Notes: generated by a model from the sequence alone, not told the origin. Positions 4,484-34,560 are shown, numbered from the stretch's first letter. The stretch: DNA of 37,057 nucleotides from a virus (IMGVR_UViG_2648501920_000014:1-37057), one strand, 5' to 3'. Numbers and translations are program-made.

Positions 4484-4587
4484 GTTAAATCTCCAGATAG
4501 TCGCAGCACCCGTTGCGCCGCATATCTGGTTATTCTATTACCTGAAAAACCACATATGGATAGAAAGACTGTGAATACGAATAGATA

Positions 4588-4602
4588 TTACCTTTCGGGT
4601 AA
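4588..4602. promoter_or_regulatory. Operator-like inverted repeat TTACC-TTTCG-GGTAA
   Basis: 15-bp dyad with A/T flanks; between tail fibre start (4483) and LexA box; one of at least 14 copies. Confidence 0.4.
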
Positions 4603-4641
4603 TTTGCAAAACGTGCTGGATAGCAAACAAATTATTTGATA

Positions 4642-4657
4642 CTGTATAAATATACAG
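4642..4657. promoter_or_regulatory. LexA (SOS) box CTGTATAAATATACAG
   Basis: Perfect CTGT-N8-ACAG with AT-only spacer, centre of an 18-bp near-palindrome; 21 nt upstream of ATG 4679. Confidence 0.6.
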
Positions 4658-4678
4658 TTATTGCATGGAGAAGATAAG

Positions 4679-4936
4679 ATGCAGCAGTATCACTATCCAC
4701 TGGAAGACGGATTTACCGAAAGGATTCACACGCCGGGAGGCGTCAGGTCACTGGTGGAGGGATCGCACTTGATGAAATTACTCCGGGATCTCGATAAGGA
4801 TGGATTTAATGTCGATGGCCCACTTGCCGAACTGACTGCACTAATTAACTACGTCACCAGCTCACAGATGTCTATGCGGGATCTGCAAACACATCTCGAC
4901 TATTGTGCCGAACAATTACGAAAACAAACCAGATAA
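4679..4936 (+). CDS. Small protein (85 aa), SOS-box-fronted; paralogue of the C-terminal domain of the adjacent Bro-N protein; candidate antirepressor
   Basis: ATG at 4679 with GGAG SD (track ORF begins at TTG 4661); stop TAA 4934-4936; by-eye alignment to Bro-N residues ~165-228. Confidence 0.55.
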   Translation: MQQYHYPLEDGFTERIHTPGGVRSLVEGSHLMKLLRDLDKDGFNVDGPLAELTALINYVTSSQMSMRDLQTHLDYCAEQLRKQTR

Positions 4937-4939
4937 GGT

Positions 4940-4968
4940 TTGCAATTACCAAATGGAGTGCTTATATT
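4940..4968 (+). promoter_or_regulatory. Sigma70-like promoter TTGCAA-17-TATATT
   Basis: -35 TTGCAA 4940-4945, 17-bp spacer, -10 TATATT 4963-4968; operator repeat overlaps the -10 end. Confidence 0.4.
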
Positions 4969-4982
4969 TACCTTTGCGGTAA
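4968..4982. promoter_or_regulatory. Operator-like inverted repeat TTACC-TTTGC-GGTAA
   Basis: 15-bp dyad overlapping the -10/+1 region of the promoter at 4940-4968. Confidence 0.4.
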
Positions 4983-5072
4983 ATTTACATCGCACTCCTC
5001 TTGTGCCATAGTAATCGGGCACTGGCAAAATCCAGTGCCGGGATTGGCGTCCCGGGTTACTAAGTGGCGCAT

Positions 5073-5096
5073 ACCACGCCAGACGTGGTTTTTTTA
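5073..5096 (+). terminator. Rho-independent terminator (ACCACG-CCAGA-CGTGGT + T-run)
   Basis: 6-bp stem, 5-nt loop, followed by 6-7 T; ends an ORF-free transcript of about 120 nt that starts near 4975. Confidence 0.5.
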
Positions 5097-5251
5097 TGCG
5101 TTAAGCACAGCTATATCCGAATTATGGTGGGCTGGGCAGGGGTCCGAAAGGACGCCGGTACCACTTAGGCCGGTACGCCAACCTTGTCCAGTTCACCACC
5201 AGTAATTGGCGTTGCGGTGGTGATTAAAATCACTAAGTGGAGATAACCACC

Positions 5252-5962
5252 ATGGCTAATGCTCAAACTGCCATCTTCAAATTTGAATCTGTTAACCCTA
5301 TCCGTTCCATCATTATCGATGGCCAACCATGGTTTGTAGCCCAAGACGTTTGTAGTGCGCTGCGTATCCAAAACGTCACCCAAGCACTTGAAAAACTGGA
5401 TGATGATGAAAGGTCTATGTTCAACATAGGGCATGAACATCGTGCAATTTTTGACAGCCGAGTAAAAGAGATCAACATCATCTCCGAGTCAGGCCTCTAC
5501 ACACTGATCCTCCGCTGCCGCGACGCAGTGACACCAGGCACTATCCCCTACCGCTTTCGTAAATGGGTTACAGGTGAGGTTCTTCCTCAGATCCGCCGCA
5601 CCGGAAGTTACATTAAAAACTCGCTCCCGCAGGAAGAACGCATAAAGATAGTTGCCGACCAGGTAGCCAACGCCACAGCATCAGCAGTGATGCAGGCAAT
5701 GAAGATAGAGAACAAAACCTACAGTGCCCCACTGAAGCCCGGCTACCGCAGCCTGATTCATTCTCCGTCTGGTGTTCTCGGCCTGACGGAGAACTCACTG
5801 CTGATGAATCTGCTGAACCAGTTACAGGAAGACGGGCACGACGTATCGGGCGCGGCGGCGGAGCTGACCACCATGTTCTGCTACATTGTTGGTGTGAGCA
5901 AATGCCTGCGTGATATCCAGACCCACGCGGAGTACATCAACGACAAGGCTGGGTTCTTCTGA
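5252..5962 (+). CDS. Bro-N domain protein (antirepressor-like) with C-terminal domain paralogous to the 4679-4936 product
   Basis: ATG at 5252 with GGAGA SD (track ORF begins at GTG 5237); N-terminal ~115 aa match the Bro-N pattern (WFVAQDVCSALRI, GLYTLIL, FRKWVTGEVLPQIRRTGSY). Confidence 0.7.
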   Translation: MANAQTAIFKFESVNPIRSIIIDGQPWFVAQDVCSALRIQNVTQALEKLDDDERSMFNIGHEHRAIFDSRVKEINIISESGLYTLILRCRDAVTPGTIPYRFRKWVTGEVLPQIRRTGSYIKNSLPQEERIKIVADQVANATASAVMQAMKIENKTYSAPLKPGYRSLIHSPSGVLGLTENSLLMNLLNQLQEDGHDVSGAAAELTTMFCYIVGVSKCLRDIQTHAEYINDKAGFF

Positions 5963-6034
5963 CGGGCGGCGGCACAGGGATGTGCCTTTAAATAATTCTG
6001 TACAGATTGCAGACTGTGGGTGAATAGCGTACTA

Positions 6035-6049
6035 TTACCTTAAAGGTAA
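6035..6049. promoter_or_regulatory. Operator-like inverted repeat TTACC-TTAAA-GGTAA
   Basis: Immediately upstream of GGAGG SD and ATG 6062; overlaps the -10 of a TTGCAG-17-TACTAT promoter (6007-6035). Confidence 0.4.
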
Positions 6050-6061
6050 AGGAGGCGCGAT

Positions 6062-6229
6062 ATGACAGCGTTGAAAAATCGTACTCAGCACAATGAACAA
6101 GCCAAGCAATGCTGGGATGTCATTGGAAAAGTTATGCTTGGCCGCGCAAGCAAAGAGCGCGACAAGGATATGGTTTACCAGACAGGAACATCTTTCAGCG
6201 ACTTCAAGGCGGCATTTCGCTCCAAATAG
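6062..6229 (+). CDS. Small protein (55 aa), unknown function; first gene of an AT-rich two-gene cassette
   Basis: ATG at 6062, GGAGG SD at 6051-6055, stop TAG 6227-6229; below the 60-aa track cutoff, read by hand. Confidence 0.4.
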   Translation: MTALKNRTQHNEQAKQCWDVIGKVMLGRASKERDKDMVYQTGTSFSDFKAAFRSK

Positions 6230-6249
6230 AAGCACATCAGGAGTTTTCC

Positions 6250-6690
6250 TTGAAGTTTAACATTAGAATATCTAATAGTTTTCTACATGGGGAAAGCAAC
6301 ACCCCTTTCGCTGTAGACGGACCTTTCCTTACTGATGATGAAATAAAAATCATACAAAGTTTTTTAGAGGATGTTGCCAATGGAAGGGCGCTTGTTGGAA
6401 AAAACAAGCCCTCGTGGGTTGATGATAACCATGATAAAATTCCCGGCTCAGACAATTATGAGCAAGAGAATTATTGGCATTATCATTGTGGGCCAACATG
6501 GTATCCAAACACATTTAAGAATTATACCATTAACTTAAATTTCAACCCTGGCGGAAGGCATTCTAATGAATGCATTCATTATGCAAAAAATGATAATGAA
6601 ATTGTCATTGTTGGATTTTCAAGAGAACACATACCTTTCCTTTCATCAGATGGAAACAACAATCCGCTTTTTAATGATGAAGAAGAATAG
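6250..6690 (+). CDS. Hypothetical protein (~146 aa), acidic C-terminus (NDEEE), AT-rich
   Basis: No internal Met; most plausible start is TTG 6250 with AGGAG SD at 6239-6243 (track ORF begins at ATG 6109, which would overlap the upstream gene); stop TAG 6688-6690. Confidence 0.45.
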   Translation: MKFNIRISNSFLHGESNTPFAVDGPFLTDDEIKIIQSFLEDVANGRALVGKNKPSWVDDNHDKIPGSDNYEQENYWHYHCGPTWYPNTFKNYTINLNFNPGGRHSNECIHYAKNDNEIVIVGFSREHIPFLSSDGNNNPLFNDEEE

Positions 6691-6711
6691 CCCGCGCTGC
6701 GGGCTTTTTTG
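6689..6711 (+). terminator. Rho-independent terminator (AGCCCGC-GCT-GCGGGCT + TTTTT)
   Basis: 7-bp GC-rich stem directly after the 6690 stop, followed by a T-run. Confidence 0.6.
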
Positions 6712-6782
6712 TGGGCGAAACAAAAGTCAGTGCTACACTCATTGACGCCACATTGAGGTGGCTTATAGATGGAAATTTCACA

Positions 6783-6944
6783 ATGAAAAAAGCATTTGCT
6801 GCACTGTTCGTTTTGTTGTCTCTGGTAGCTTCAACTCAGGCCTTTGCCGGTCGTTGTCAGCACGACAGCGACACTGCTGCTGACGGCTCCCGCTGCGGTG
6901 GGCGTTCTGCGGATTCCCGCCCTGGTGGCGGTGGCATTCGTTAA
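6783..6944 (+). CDS. Small secreted peptide precursor (53 aa; signal peptide plus ~31-aa Gly/Cys-containing mature part)
   Basis: ATG at 6783; MKKAFAALFVLLSLVASTQAFA looks like a Sec signal peptide with an AFA-G cleavage site; stop TAA 6942-6944; SD is weak. Confidence 0.4.
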   Translation: MKKAFAALFVLLSLVASTQAFAGRCQHDSDTAADGSRCGGRSADSRPGGGGIR

Positions 6945-23494: not shown

Positions 23495-23571
23495 GTGGCA
23501 TTAGCTCAGTCGGACAGAGCAACCGCCTTCTAAGCGGTTGGTCGCAGGTTCGAATCCTGCATGCCACGCCA
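23495..23571 (+). tRNA. tRNA-Arg (anticodon TCT, reads AGA)
   Basis: Cloverleaf read by hand: acceptor GTGGCAT/ATGCCAC, D-stem GCTC/GAGC, anticodon stem ACCGC/GCGGT with loop CTTCTAA, T-arm GCAGG-TTCGAAT-CCTGC, discriminator G, encoded CCA. Confidence 0.85.
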
Positions 23572-23657: not shown

Positions 23658-23734
23658 CAGCAGGACGCCATTGCGATGACTTCATGCTGTAAACCAGTAC
23701 AGCCACGGAAGGCATAACTCATTGCTTCCAGTTC

Positions 23735-30756: not shown

Positions 30757-30987
30757 TCATGAGTAGAAGAAGTATGCCAGTTCTGCTTTTGAGCGCAGCC
30801 ATTGTCTTGTTTTACAGGCTTTAAAAAGCCCATTCATCAATACTTTACCTGGCATTTTGCGCTTACCTGTTAAGTGAGTCTGGATATAGTGACTCGTCGT
30901 TCCGGCTTCCTGTGCGAAGGCTTCACGCTCATCCGGAGTAAGTGCAAGCCAGTGCTTTTTGAAATCGAAATGTCCGTTATCGCTCAT
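30757..30987 (-). CDS. Cro-like / CII-like HTH regulator (76 aa)
   Basis: ATG at 30987; HTH-like LTPDEREAFAQEAGTTSHYIQTHLTGKR; divergent from the repressor across the operator cluster. Confidence 0.5.
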   Translation of the reverse strand: MSDNGHFDFKKHWLALTPDEREAFAQEAGTTSHYIQTHLTGKRKMPGKVLMNGLFKACKTRQWLRSKAELAYFFYS

Positions 30988-31023: not shown

Positions 31024-31086
31024 TCACCCATAAGGTAACAAAAATCAAGGATAGTTACCTATGAGGTGCATTTACCTGTTGGGTAA
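31024..31086. promoter_or_regulatory. Operator cluster (OR-like): three inverted repeats between the cro-like and repressor genes
   Basis: TCACC-CATAA-GGTAA (31024-31038), TTACC-TATGA-GGTGC (31055-31069), TTACC-TGTTG-GGTAA (31072-31086); last two abut. Confidence 0.5.
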
Positions 31087-31141: not shown

Positions 31142-31726
31142 ATGAAAAGTATCCAGGACGTCCGCAGGCAAAATCTCAACGACTTGATCGACCGTGAATT
31201 CAATGGTGTTCAGACGCGGATGGCAGAAAAACTTGGAACTCAGGCAAATCTGGTAAACCGCTGGGCTCTTGGCAAGAAGGTTATCGGCGACCAGGTTGCG
31301 CGAAAAATTGAAGCTGCCGCCAATAAACCACGTAACTGGCTTGATATCGATCGCTCGCTTTCTCAGGAAGGTTTTCAGCCTGTCGGCCCAAGCGACATTG
31401 GTCAGCTGGCGGCTCACAACCTGGAACGCTGGATGAGCGAAAGCCGCGACCTTTCAACACAGGGAAAACTTCACCGCGCATCCGGCGTCGCCCAGGTGAC
31501 AATCAGCCGCCTGTTAAACAATGAGGTCAGCGTTTCCATTTCCACCCTGGAGAATGTTGCATCCGCATTCGGGCGTCACGGCTATGAATTACTGATTCAC
31601 CCGCACGACCCTGCGACCATCAACTATGACCGCTCGCGCTACGCATTGTTACCCGAAACCGAGAAAGCAAAGATCGAAAGTTACATTGAATTTGTCATCA
31701 ACCAGAACGAAAAAAACAAACAATAA
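31142..31726 (+). CDS. Phage repressor with two HTH domains and no S24 autocleavage domain
   Basis: ATG at 31142; two HTH-like segments (LGTQANLVNRWALGKKVIGDQVARKIEAAANKPRNWLD and ASGVAQVTISRLLNNEVSVSISTLENVASAFG); no Ala-Gly cleavage site or Ser/Lys dyad seen; stop TAA 31724-31726. Confidence 0.65.
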   Translation: MKSIQDVRRQNLNDLIDREFNGVQTRMAEKLGTQANLVNRWALGKKVIGDQVARKIEAAANKPRNWLDIDRSLSQEGFQPVGPSDIGQLAAHNLERWMSESRDLSTQGKLHRASGVAQVTISRLLNNEVSVSISTLENVASAFGRHGYELLIHPHDPATINYDRSRYALLPETEKAKIESYIEFVINQNEKNKQ

Positions 31727-31783: not shown

Positions 31784-31860
31784 TTACCTTACGGGTAATT
31801 TTTTTAACTCATATCTATTGACATCAAACCAAATACGAATAATCATTACCTCAACGGTAA
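31784..31860. promoter_or_regulatory. OL-like region: two operator repeats flanking a TTGACA promoter
   Basis: TTACC-TTACG-GGTAA (31784-31798), -35 TTGACA (31818-31823), TTACC-TCAAC-GGTAA (31846-31860) over the likely -10/+1; followed by GAGG SD and ATG 31880. Confidence 0.5.
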
Positions 31861-33239: not shown

Positions 33240-34262
33240 ATGTCTATCAATGCACTTAAGGCAGCGGCTACCGGTAACCAAGTTGCACATCATAATGAGA
33301 AACCAACAACTCTGGCCGGACTTCTGGCAGACCCAAAAATTAAAGCTCAGATGGCTTTGGCACTTCCAAAGCACATGACAGCAGACCGTCTGGCGCGCAT
33401 AGCAACCACAGAGATCCGAAAGGTTCCAAAACTTGCATCATGCGACCAAGCCAGCTTCCTGGGGGCAATTATGCAATGTGCCCAATTGGGTCTTGAACCA
33501 GGCGGAGCTCTTGGACACGCTTACCTGATACCGTTCGACAAACGCCAGAAAGTAAATGGAAGATGGGAAACCGTATCTACAGAAGCACAGCTGATTATCG
33601 GCTATCGCGGAATGATTGACCTTGCCCGCCGCTCTGGGCAGATCCTGAGTATCTCGGCTCGTACCGTACATACAAACGACAAATTCAGCTACTCATACGG
33701 CCTGGAAGAAACGCTCGAGCATTTACCTTGCGAAACAGGTGACCGCGGAGAATTAACGCACGTTTACGCCGTTGCACGACTGAAAGATGGCGGAGTCCAA
33801 TTTGAAGTTATGAGCCGGGCAGACATTGAGAAAGTTCGTGCACTGAGCAAAGCCGGTAGCAGTGGCCCATGGGTTGATCACTTCGATGAGATGGCTAAAA
33901 AAACAGTAATTCGCCGACTATTCAAATATCTTCCTGTTTCTATTGAAATGCAGAAGGCTGTTGTTATGGATGAGCGCGCTGAAGCTGGACTTAGCCAAGA
34001 TAACGCAGCTGTTATCACTGGTGAATATTCCGTAGTTGACGATGAGCGTCAACACCTGTCGCCAATTTCAGATTCAGAACGAGAAGAAGCTCGAGAATAT
34101 ATCATCGCGATACTTAATAGCCTGGATCCATCTGCTGAAGATGCAAAAACGATGTTCAAGCGCGCTGAAAATGAGATTAACACCATGGCTGAAAAGCTCG
34201 GTGATGAATATCACCAAAAATTCATGATGACGCTTAACGATATGCGTCCAGAATTCGAGTAA
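33240..34262 (+). CDS. RecT-family single-strand annealing protein
   Basis: ATG at 33240 with GGAG SD; RecT-like core (YLIPFDKRQ, IIGYRGMIDLARRSG, SSGPWVDHFDEMAKKTVIRRLFKYLP). Confidence 0.8.
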   Translation: MSINALKAAATGNQVAHHNEKPTTLAGLLADPKIKAQMALALPKHMTADRLARIATTEIRKVPKLASCDQASFLGAIMQCAQLGLEPGGALGHAYLIPFDKRQKVNGRWETVSTEAQLIIGYRGMIDLARRSGQILSISARTVHTNDKFSYSYGLEETLEHLPCETGDRGELTHVYAVARLKDGGVQFEVMSRADIEKVRALSKAGSSGPWVDHFDEMAKKTVIRRLFKYLPVSIEMQKAVVMDERAEAGLSQDNAAVITGEYSVVDDERQHLSPISDSEREEAREYIIAILNSLDPSAEDAKTMFKRAENEINTMAEKLGDEYHQKFMMTLNDMRPEFE

Positions 34263-34311: not shown

Positions 34312-34560
34312 ATGAAAGGTGCATTAGGTAAGAAGGAACTCCTGGCGGTGGTGCCACTGTCATGGAGCACTATCGATCGTATGGAGCGCGCAGGGGAATT
34401 TCCTAAACGCTGGTATATCACCGATAAACGCTGCGCATGGAACCGTGATGAAGTTGAGCGTTGGCTTGATGAACGTCAGGCAGCAAGCCCGGCAGAGTTC
34501 CAGGGTAAAAAACCTCCTGTTCAGCAACGTGTATATCGTCCCGTGAGCAACGCGGCATGA
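34312..34560 (+). CDS. AlpA/Xis-like HTH protein (excisionase or transcriptional regulator)
   Basis: ATG at 34312 with GAGAGG SD; motif LSWSTIDRMERAGEFPKRWYITDKRCAWNRDEVERWL typical of the AlpA family. Confidence 0.7.
   Translation: MKGALGKKELLAVVPLSWSTIDRMERAGEFPKRWYITDKRCAWNRDEVERWLDERQAASPAEFQGKKPPVQQRVYRPVSNAA

Follow-up and report, generated by a model that had tools for sequence, protein, structure and literature searches.

A probable two-tier antirepression module in a phiV10/epsilon15-like temperate podophage, combining an SPC32H-type antirepressor gene behind a LexA box with a P1 immI-type cassette

Organisation of the region

The viral sequence IMGVR_UViG_2648501920_000014:1-37057, a stretch of 37,057 nucleotides that was analysed whole and is referred to here as the window, belongs to a phiV10/epsilon15-like temperate podophage of the genus Uetakevirus with Escherichia coli as its host. 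Positions 4588 to 5962 of the window hold a small gene for an 85-aa protein, here called ant, which is preceded by a LexA (SOS) box and followed by an IsrK-type small RNA, a C4 antisense RNA and a gene for a 236-aa protein with a Bro-N domain (Table 1). This region is very probably an antirepression ("anti-immunity") module with two tiers, both of which would act on the same repressor, Rep, encoded by a distant gene of the same phage. The core of the first tier, a switch made of LexA, Ant and Rep, is the biology already described for Salmonella phage SPC32H, met here in an E. coli relative; because this switch has been described before, its recognition in the window is correct but not new. What the present analysis adds is more modest and concerns a network of operator-type palindromes, a P1-type RNA gate with co-varying specificity types, and the shuffling of the Ant fold as an effector domain.

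The region is 97% identical to the corresponding part of Escherichia phage HEMP4 and 91% identical to that of phiV10, and it is present in 535 of 5426 complete E. coli genomes (about 10%). In phiV10 the counterpart of the small gene, phiV10p24, is annotated "hypothetical protein" and that of the Bro-N gene "putative anti-immunity protein"; epsilon15 gp19 is a further homologue of ant. Among the E. coli records listed, "hypothetical protein" is likewise the only RefSeq name given to the gene beside the BRO-N gene. Phage TL-2011b, a close relative from an O103:H25 strain, carries Stx.

Table 1. Positions of the genes, RNAs and sequence elements in the window
Feature	Position	Strand	Basis or remark
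Operator-type palindrome TTACCTTTCGGGTAA	4588-4602	.	91 nt before the ant ATG
LexA (SOS) box TACTGTATAAATATACAGTT	4640-4659	+	Consensus match; core CTGT-N8-ACAG at 4642-4657
ant, SPC32H-type antirepressor, 85 aa	4679-4936	+	PDB, SPC32H and phrog_450 matches
Upstream promoter-like site TTGCAA-17-TATATT	4940-4968	+	Consensus scan; -10 runs into operator 4968-4982
Operator-type palindrome TTACCTTTGCGGTAA	4968-4982	.	Between ant and Bro-N gene; abuts -35 TTTACA
IsrK promoter-like site TTTACA-17-CATAGT, TG extension	4984-5012	+	Consensus scan; start would equal IsrK 5' end
c4-a1b1 element	5006-5058	+	Rfam 44.1 bits, just under gathering score 46.7
IsrK / c4-a1b1 small RNA	5019-5095	+	Rfam isrK 67.7 bits (gathering score 50)
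Decoy site a1 TTGGCGT	5044-5050	+	Inside IsrK
Decoy site b1 CTAAGTGG	5060-5067	+	Inside IsrK
Intrinsic terminator of IsrK	5073-5096	+	Terminator prediction
C4 antisense RNA	5120-5203	+	Rfam RF01695, 66 bits (gathering score 45), full length 1-87
C4 b' hairpin loop CCACTTAG	5161-5168	+	Predicted to pair with b2 and b1
C4 a' single-stranded ACGCCAA	5175-5181	+	Predicted to pair with a2 and a1
C4 target region in Bro-N leader	5206-5243	+	Complementarity to C4
C4 target a2 TTGGCGT	5206-5212	+	Bro-N leader
C4 target b2 CTAAGTGG	5233-5240	+	Bro-N leader; overlaps Shine-Dalgarno GGAG of ATG 5252
Bro-N protein gene, putative second antirepressor, 236 aa	5252-5962	+	Pfam, PHROG and PDB matches
Ant-like C-terminal domain	aa 155-231, nt 5714-5944	+	Match to PDB 5D50 chain E, E 1.2e-13
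Third promoter-like site TTGCAG-17-TACTAT	6008-6049 including operator	+	Read from sequence; before accessory open reading frames (ORFs)
Operator-type palindrome TTACCTTAAAGGTAA	6035-6049	.	Overlaps third promoter-like site
Accessory ORF, 55 aa	6062-6229		phrog_8607; function unknown
Accessory ORF, phrog_5954	within 6109-6690, start approximate		Function unknown
Small secreted or lipoprotein-like "moron" MKKAFAALFVLLSL...	ATG 6783 to 6944		phrog_14503; function unknown
cro-like gene	30757-30987	-	Divergent from rep
Operator cluster between rep and divergent cro-like gene	31024-31086	.	Sites 31024 and 31072, with a degenerate one between
rep, SPC32H-type repressor, 194 aa, two helix-turn-helix regions	31142-31726	+	PDB, Pfam; presumed target of both antirepressors
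Palindrome pair 3' of rep	31784-31860	.	Sites 31784 and 31846

The small gene and its LexA box

The relationship of the small gene is revealed by its match to the crystallised Rep-Ant complex of Salmonella phage SPC32H (PDB 5D50). Residues 2-84 of the 85-aa protein align with residues 3-85 of chain E of that structure ("Anti-repressor protein", 86 aa) at an E value of 1.4e-46, and the protein shares 72 of 83 positions (87% identity) with Ant as annotated in SPC32H (SPC32H_020). It also falls within phrog_450 (E 7e-48), a family that PHROG labels as of unknown function; a Pfam match to DUF724 (E 0.005) lay far below the cut-off and was taken as noise. Copies of Ant in enterobacterial phage records are 59-100% identical to it, and the protein is conserved also in prophage genomes of other genera. 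It was found in 35 of 50,697 phage records, and a Rep homologue was present in every one of the 35.

For Salmonella phages, a review that cites Kim and Ryu (2013) states that self-cleavage of LexA leads to the production of Ant, which blocks the repressor through protein-protein contact, and a later structural paper describes a Rep that binds DNA as a tetramer and a tetrameric Ant that binds two Rep dimers and breaks the tetramer. Because the SPC32H system has been characterised experimentally, homology to it supports the view that the 85-aa gene encodes an SOS/LexA-controlled antirepressor of a repressor unable to cleave itself. An earlier note, made by a model from the sequence of the window alone, had taken this gene for an SOS-triggered antirepressor, and the homology to SPC32H Ant, the match of the window Rep to its SPC32H counterpart and the published mechanism all bear that proposal out. 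In phiV10-type prophages, the gene at 4679-4936 is thus likely to be what sets off induction in the SOS response.

The LexA box on which this proposal had rested was also confirmed. Its core, CTGTATAAATATACAG, lies at 4642-4657 on the plus strand between the flanks TA and TT, fits CTGT-N8-ACAG, and is placed 21 nt before the ATG at 4679 with a GGAG ribosome-binding site in between. The motif CTGT-N8-ACAG occurs twice in the 37-kb window against 0.47 occurrences expected. The 20-mer consensus TACTGTATATATATACAGTA, searched with up to three mismatches, has a single match in the window, namely the box itself at 4640-4659 (two mismatches), and none of 100 shuffled windows contained a near-consensus 20-mer. 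Directly 5' of the box is a -35-like TTGATA (4636-4641); the recA promoter likewise has its -35 hexamer immediately before a LexA box.

The second occurrence of the core motif, CTGTAAACCAGTACAG at 23687-23702, is situated 116 nt 3' of a tRNA-Arg gene (anticodon TCT, 23495-23571), and SPC32H has a tRNA-Arg gene in the matching place. This site was rejected as a LexA box, having a G+C-rich centre, no TA flanks and no near start codon in the right orientation, and is probably due to chance.

Conservation of the box was followed in other hosts. Since a scan of viral contigs for Ant returned 80 near-identical loci, a profile scan of one genome per species was used, which yielded ten further loci with a confirmed Ant homologue. 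These came from Citrobacter (two species), Candidatus Erwinia dacicola, Superficieibacter, Pseudocitrobacter, Scandinavium, Kluyvera, Klebsiella pneumoniae, Pseudescherichia and Buttiauxella. A LexA-type box is kept approximately 20-30 nt before the ant ATG in all ten loci, as is a palindrome of the form TTACC-N5-GGTAA approximately 90 nt before it. The box is a perfect CTGT-N8-ACAG in six of the loci and reads ATGT-N8-ACAG in the other four, where the rest of the box is near-perfect and has an ideal (AT)n centre.

Three blocks 5' of ant (4533-4561 and 4616-4623) are also conserved across genera, namely TCTATTACC, which includes a TTACC half-site, TATATGAAT and CTGGA(T/A)AG. They may form part of the ant promoter or of a divergent tailspike promoter. 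The conserved CTGGA (4616-4620) was also considered as part of a sigma-54 promoter, and this was rejected because a GC element at -12 is lacking.

The repressor and the dispersed palindromes

The presumed target of Ant is encoded far from it in the window. Over its full length Rep matches chain A of PDB 5D50 ("Repressor", 199 aa; E 4e-42), it further matches the separate structure of the C-terminal domain (5D4Z; E 4e-20), and it is 42% identical to Rep of SPC32H (SPC32H_041). Pfam assigns to it an HTH_3 and a YdaS-like helix-turn-helix domain only, and a Pfam scan of the 31142-31726 product found no peptidase S24 domain, in agreement with the earlier statement that this repressor lacks one. 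The N-terminal helix-turn-helix region of Rep, including the residues NLVNRW, is conserved between the window phage and SPC32H, which fits an operator common to the two.

A candidate for such an operator is the palindrome TTACC-N5-GGTAA. With at most one mismatch it has 13 sites in the window against 0.52 expected (starts at 4588, 4968, 6035, 23158, 26225, 26243, 28679, 28741, 30687, 31024, 31072, 31784 and 31846), and SPC32H has 18 against 0.54 expected, one of them before ant and a cluster around rep. The sites flanking rep in the window parallel the SPC32H clusters at 34390-34451 and 33528-33680, and further sites precede late, replication and accessory units, a distribution that resembles the dispersed operator network of P1 C1. 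Because it clusters around rep in both phages, the palindrome is read as the putative Rep operator. The copy upstream of ant is found at -89/-91 from the ATG in all ten species loci and in SPC32H.

The Bro-N protein and the domain shared with Ant

The larger protein carries, as had been stated before, a Bro-N domain, which Pfam places at residues 17-112 (PF02498; E 1e-19; score 71.4 bits, cut-off 25.6), and it matches phrog_130, "anti-repressor Ant", at E 1e-55. Its Bro-N half is 53% identical to the product of the N15 gene annotated "gene 30: anti-repressor Ant". The remainder is of a different kind, in that residues 153-234 match phrog_450 and most of this part matches Ant in PDB 5D50 (Table 1). 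The small protein had originally been aligned by eye with residues ~165-228 of the Bro-N protein; BLASTP gave 32 of 74 identities (43%, E 2e-16) between residues 2-75 of the former and 155-228 of the latter, so that the likeness stands while the shared stretch begins some ten residues earlier. At eighteen positions, 19 free Ants and the Bro-N-fused domain all have the same residue.

The same arrangement recurs in related loci. In the window and in seven other loci that possess IsrK and C4, the gene that follows encodes an N-terminal domain joined to an Ant-like domain that is 35-47% identical to the small Ant; phiV10 has a truncated copy of this Ant-like domain, and the other seven loci have a complete one. 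Wherever both genes are present, the small ant adjoins the Bro-N gene. A profile search of 1.84 billion representative proteins placed the Ant-like domain in only 60 clusters, whose longer members bear N-terminal Bro-N, AntA or Phage_pRha (Rha) domains. The SPC32H Ant fold thus appears to be a narrow effector module that has been shuffled among different N-terminal domains, and this shuffling supports its role as the repressor-binding part. Because the free-standing 86-aa Ant by itself forms a complex with Rep, the domain common to Ant and the Bro-N protein can be regarded as the Rep-binding module, which is what the earlier note had suggested.

The IsrK/C4 cassette

Between ant and the Bro-N gene lies a compact RNA cassette whose parts are listed in Table 1. 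The a' and b' segments of C4 have exact complements both in the Bro-N leader (a2 and b2) and within IsrK (a1 and b1). Across the eight loci these segments co-vary three ways (a' with a1 and a2, b' with b1 and b2), the exceptions being one mismatch and one G-U pair. Four b types (AAGTGG, AAAAGG, ACAAAGG and AAACGG) and three a types (GGCGT, GGTCT and GAGAC) were distinguished among them. This three-way covariation is strong comparative evidence for what would be a working antisense gate with a decoy, and the a/b types look like secondary-immunity subtypes of the P1/P7 style among epsilon15-like prophages. The cassette is optional: SPC32H lacks it, and so do four of the ten species loci in which an Ant homologue was confirmed.

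Two promoter-like sites precede IsrK. An equivalent of the upstream site (TTGnAA-17-..AT) was recognised by eye in loci L083, L084 and L085, and the IsrK promoter sequence TTGTGCCATAGT is conserved in the cassette loci. The operator-type palindrome starts 51 nt before the IsrK 5' end (48 nt in phiV10), a spacing that is fixed in seven of the eight cassette loci. These positions make repression by Rep very likely for the upstream promoter (4940-4968); for the IsrK promoter the effect of Rep could be repression as well, or else activation, given an operator centred near -44. No terminator was predicted in 4937-5018, that is, between the ant stop codon (4936) and IsrK.

With a C4 gate over its ribosome-binding site and promoters and an operator of its own, none of which the earlier note mentions, the Bro-N gene is not directly under LexA control. 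Of the SOS-controlled antirepressor pair that had been envisaged for this region, the small ant therefore stands and the Bro-N gene, as a direct target of LexA, does not. The latter is better described, on the features of its sequence, as a putative second antirepressor gene of the P1 immI type, RNA-gated and bearing an Ant domain.

The cassette is followed by a third promoter-like site that overlaps an operator-type palindrome, and by a stretch of accessory ORFs at 6062-6944. Homologues of the last of these, the "moron" of phrog_14503, adjoin the cassette in the Kluyvera, Klebsiella and Buttiauxella loci.

A proposed two-tier mechanism

The following mechanism is proposed, of which the first tier is well supported by homology; the parts of the second tier are well supported too, and from them we infer its role. 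In a lysogen, host LexA bound at 4642-4657 would keep ant off. Upon DNA damage, the RecA-stimulated self-cleavage of LexA would allow Ant to be made, and Ant would bind the non-self-cleaving Rep and free its operators, so that the prophage is induced. The second tier would be formed by an insert immediately 3' of ant, a cassette like immI of P1, in which a' and b' of C4 pair with a2 and b2; as b2 covers the Shine-Dalgarno sequence, translation of the Bro-N protein would be blocked. IsrK, with its identical a1 and b1, would serve as a decoy for C4.

Release of the second tier could follow several routes, which are not mutually exclusive. The Rep-controlled promoter may open while the balance of decoy to C4 shifts, SOS-induced read-through from ant may raise the amount of a1b1/IsrK RNA, or an incoming phage may meet no matching C4, the last being anti-immunity as in P1/P7 and N15. 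It may be speculated that the second tier amplifies induction, or commits the prophage to it, as Rep begins to fall, or that it provides typed anti-immunity in superinfection.

If these proposals hold, an annotation gap is closed, since the "hypothetical protein" beside the BRO-N gene would be the likely SOS trigger of phiV10-type prophages, some of which carry Stx; the PGAP and PHROGs (phrog_450) labels could be updated to this effect. In addition, many epsilon15-like prophages would be seen to add a P1-style RNA-gated second antirepressor that uses the same Rep-binding domain. They offer a natural system in which to ask why phages stack two tiers of antirepression on one repressor.

Evidence against the proposal and alternative explanations

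Several observations weigh against the two-tier switch as set out above or limit how far it can be taken. LexA binding, Ant-Rep binding and repression by C4 are all carried over to this phage from its homologues. Identity to SPC32H is 87% for Ant and 42% for Rep, and because Rep is so much the more diverged, contact between Ant and Rep in the window phage is a matter of deduction; either Ant touches a conserved patch of Rep, or the module comprising ant and the tailspike end and the immunity module have recombined independently of each other. The promoter of ant is also poorly defined. A promoter consensus scan with a threshold of 9/12 gave no ant promoter near the LexA box. Inspection by eye of the window and of related loci aligned with it yields two weak candidates, TGGATA-17-TACTGT and TTGATA-box-TATTGC, the latter recA-like, and neither of them is convincing. 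The conserved operator-type site 40 nt 5' of the LexA box indicates that ant may be under the control of Rep as well, which complicates a switch worked by LexA only.

The box itself varies. In the Superficieibacter, Kluyvera, K. pneumoniae and Pseudescherichia loci (L085, L088, L089 and L090), at about 40 nt before each ant ATG, it reads ATGTATAT(A/G)(T/C)ATACAG, with A in place of the C that is normally invariant in the left half, and LexA control may therefore be weak or lost in some lineages; the change suggests weakening or loss in one lineage. As to the second tier, the Bro-N gene of phiV10 (L001, 3270-3949) encodes 194 aa and is cut within the Ant-like domain; a separate ORF of 30 aa, phiV10p22, comes after it. 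In this type phage the second antirepressor is probably inactive, and this truncation implies that the second tier is dispensable. Finally, among the ORFs of the window, none that could correspond to icd or orf45 ends at or overlaps the start of the Bro-N gene. In the absence of such an upstream ORF, C4 would cover the antirepressor's own ribosome-binding site, and the cassette is a simplified variant of immI.

The most drastic alternative is that the LexA-like box is a chance occurrence or a relic and the 85-aa ORF a decaying duplicate of the 3' end of the Bro-N gene with no function. PHROG and RefSeq do label the small protein as unknown or hypothetical, and four loci show the C-to-A change in the box. 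Nonetheless, the orthologue of this protein was crystallised with Rep, in SPC32H the small gene occurs without a Bro-N copy, the protein is conserved with the box at a fixed distance, and no shuffled sequence gave a near-consensus 20-mer. This explanation is barely conceivable and can be taken as already refuted by the evidence of conservation, SPC32H and the crystal structure. It is also improbable, to a lesser degree, that the small Ant assembles together with the Ant-like domain at the C-terminus of the Bro-N protein and that one modulates the other, either as a dominant negative or in a mixed tetramer with altered affinity for Rep. The 18 invariant positions, the reported tetrameric state of Ant and the adjacency of the two genes whenever both are present would be compatible with this; on the other hand, their identity is only 35-47%, the conserved part need not be the oligomer interface, and co-assembly is an extra assumption that no observation needs.

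Two further explanations concern what the second tier is for, and of these it is quite possible, if short of probable, that the Bro-N/C4 cassette is unrelated to induction and is instead an anti-immunity device used during infection in the manner of P1/P7 or N15. The Bro-N antirepressor of an incoming phage would then overcome Rep unless the prophage supplies a matching C4 in trans, and phages with a common Rep would fall into immunity subtypes according to their a/b types. The covariation of four b and three a types in cassettes that are otherwise alike points in this direction, as do the 53% identity of the Bro-N half to N15 gene 30 Ant and the optional nature of the cassette. However, the operator at the cassette promoters ties expression to the level of Rep, and a role in anti-immunity is compatible with one in induction and does not exclude it.

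The other, which is unlikely though not to be neglected, is an SOS relay by way of RNA. The ant transcript would read into a1b1/IsrK and titrate C4, thereby unlocking the Bro-N gene, and both antirepressors would be SOS-controlled; such a relay extends the two-tier proposal and does not replace it. In its favour are the exact a1/b1 copies of the C4 targets within IsrK, the more than 100-fold activation of antirepressor translation by Gifsy-1 IsrK supplied in trans, and the lack of a predicted terminator at 4937-5018, whereas SPC32H has a terminator-like repeat right after ant. The argument is nevertheless drawn from sequence, and the read-through RNA may fold unlike free IsrK. C4 made from the same cassette would also rise if Rep falls, and the IsrK promoter is probably active already in the lysogen, where the contribution of extra decoy may be marginal. 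It is more doubtful still that the whole chain operates, in which LexA cleavage would yield both Ant and read-through IsrK/a1b1 RNA that sponges up C4, while the loss of Rep opens the cassette promoter and the Bro-N antirepressor is released. If true, this chain would convert a graded SOS signal into an irreversible commitment to lysis, and the a/b types would make the second tier specific to phage subtypes.

Comparison with known systems

As far as found, there is no earlier description of a LexA switch and a P1-type antisense gate acting on one repressor, and the two tiers are accordingly best compared with separate systems. The first tier corresponds closely to that of SPC32H (KC911856), a phage likewise assigned to Uetakevirus, in whose record ant (SPC32H_020) and rep (SPC32H_041) are annotated and no Bro-N copy is present. 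In both phages ant occupies a slot between the tailspike gene and the gene for an 824-aa protein, and the sequence upstream of the SPC32H gene reads TTATTACCTTACAGGTAATTTGCA...TGCTGGATAG...TTACTGTATGTTTATACAGTG...GGAGAAGAAGAGATG, with the palindrome, the CTGGATAG motif and the LexA box as in the window. The SPC32H box, TACTGTATGTTTATACAGTG, is equally far from the ant ATG, and the TTACC-N5-GGTAA palindrome occurs 5' of ant and clusters at rep in the two alike. Each has a Rep of approximately 195 aa, homologous over the full length, with two helix-turn-helix regions and no S24 domain. Kim and colleagues are said to have found in 2016 that SPC32H Ant touches the C-terminal domains of Rep and does not compete for the DNA-binding surface.

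The two phages differ in the divergence of Rep (42% identity), in their hosts, Salmonella as opposed to E. coli, and in what follows ant. SPC32H has a G+C-rich inverted repeat, read as a terminator, directly 3' of ant, while the window phage has an insert of approximately 2 kb that comprises IsrK, C4, the Bro-N protein with its diverged Ant domain, and a promoter, apparently operator-controlled, with small ORFs.

This insert finds its counterpart in the immI region of P1, which consists of the c4 antisense RNA, icd and ant1/2 and for which, as for P7, an antisense gate with a decoy is established; N15 also has an RNA-gated anti-immunity region. The order of elements is the same in P1/P7 and in the window, namely a1/b1, C4 with a'/b', a2/b2 over a ribosome-binding site, and the antirepressor gene. 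Tandem promoters with an operator for the primary repressor are common to both, the operators being dispersed over the genome, and in both, related elements differ in their a/b sequences, which form specificity types. According to what is reported of work by Citron and Schuster, the c4 specificity of P1 and P7 shows a co-varying a/b pattern. In contrast to P1, the window cassette has no icd-like ORF, so that its C4 would act on the antirepressor's own Shine-Dalgarno sequence, and it is located directly 3' of a paralogous antirepressor gene under putative LexA control. Its effector domain has the fold of SPC32H Ant and is unrelated to P1 Ant, and its repressor is unrelated to P1 C1.

A second RNA-gated relative is the isrK-orf45-anrP region of Gifsy-1 in Salmonella, where translation of the antirepressor encoded downstream rose more than 100-fold when IsrK was provided in trans (Hershko-Shalev et al. 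2016, PMC4825925). Gifsy-1 and the window share an IsrK with its own promoter and terminator, then a C4-like element, then an antirepressor gene. They differ in that Gifsy-1 has orf45 upstream, with translational coupling, and in that its target repressor is not an SPC32H-type Rep. The SOS locus STM14_3218-3220 of Gifsy-1 was considered as a counterpart and found unrelated to the window locus.

The SOS side of the Gifsy prophages is a different matter. The earlier note had likened the small gene to the LexA-controlled antirepressors of the Gifsy prophages and to Tum of phage 186, and this comparison holds for the logic of the switch and not for the family, the relevant family being that of SPC32H Ant. 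The antirepressor genes of the Gifsy prophages are part of a dinI-gfoA-irsA operon, and one half of Tum is DinI-like (Lemire et al. 2011, PMC3121763). Scans with Pfam and PHROG, which took in ant and a set of ORFs around it, gave no match to DinI or Tum, GfoA and Tum having not been compared with ant directly, and no homologue of dinI or irsA was seen adjoining ant in the window. Membership in the dinI-gfoA-irsA family is ruled out by this difference in operon layout, ant standing alone behind its box, and the Gifsy genes are analogues. What Tum (186), AntC (N15), GfoA/GfhA/GftA (Gifsy) and the Ant of the window phage have in common is the logic of their control, in which an uncleavable repressor is paired with a small, LexA-repressed antirepressor gene located outside the immunity region.

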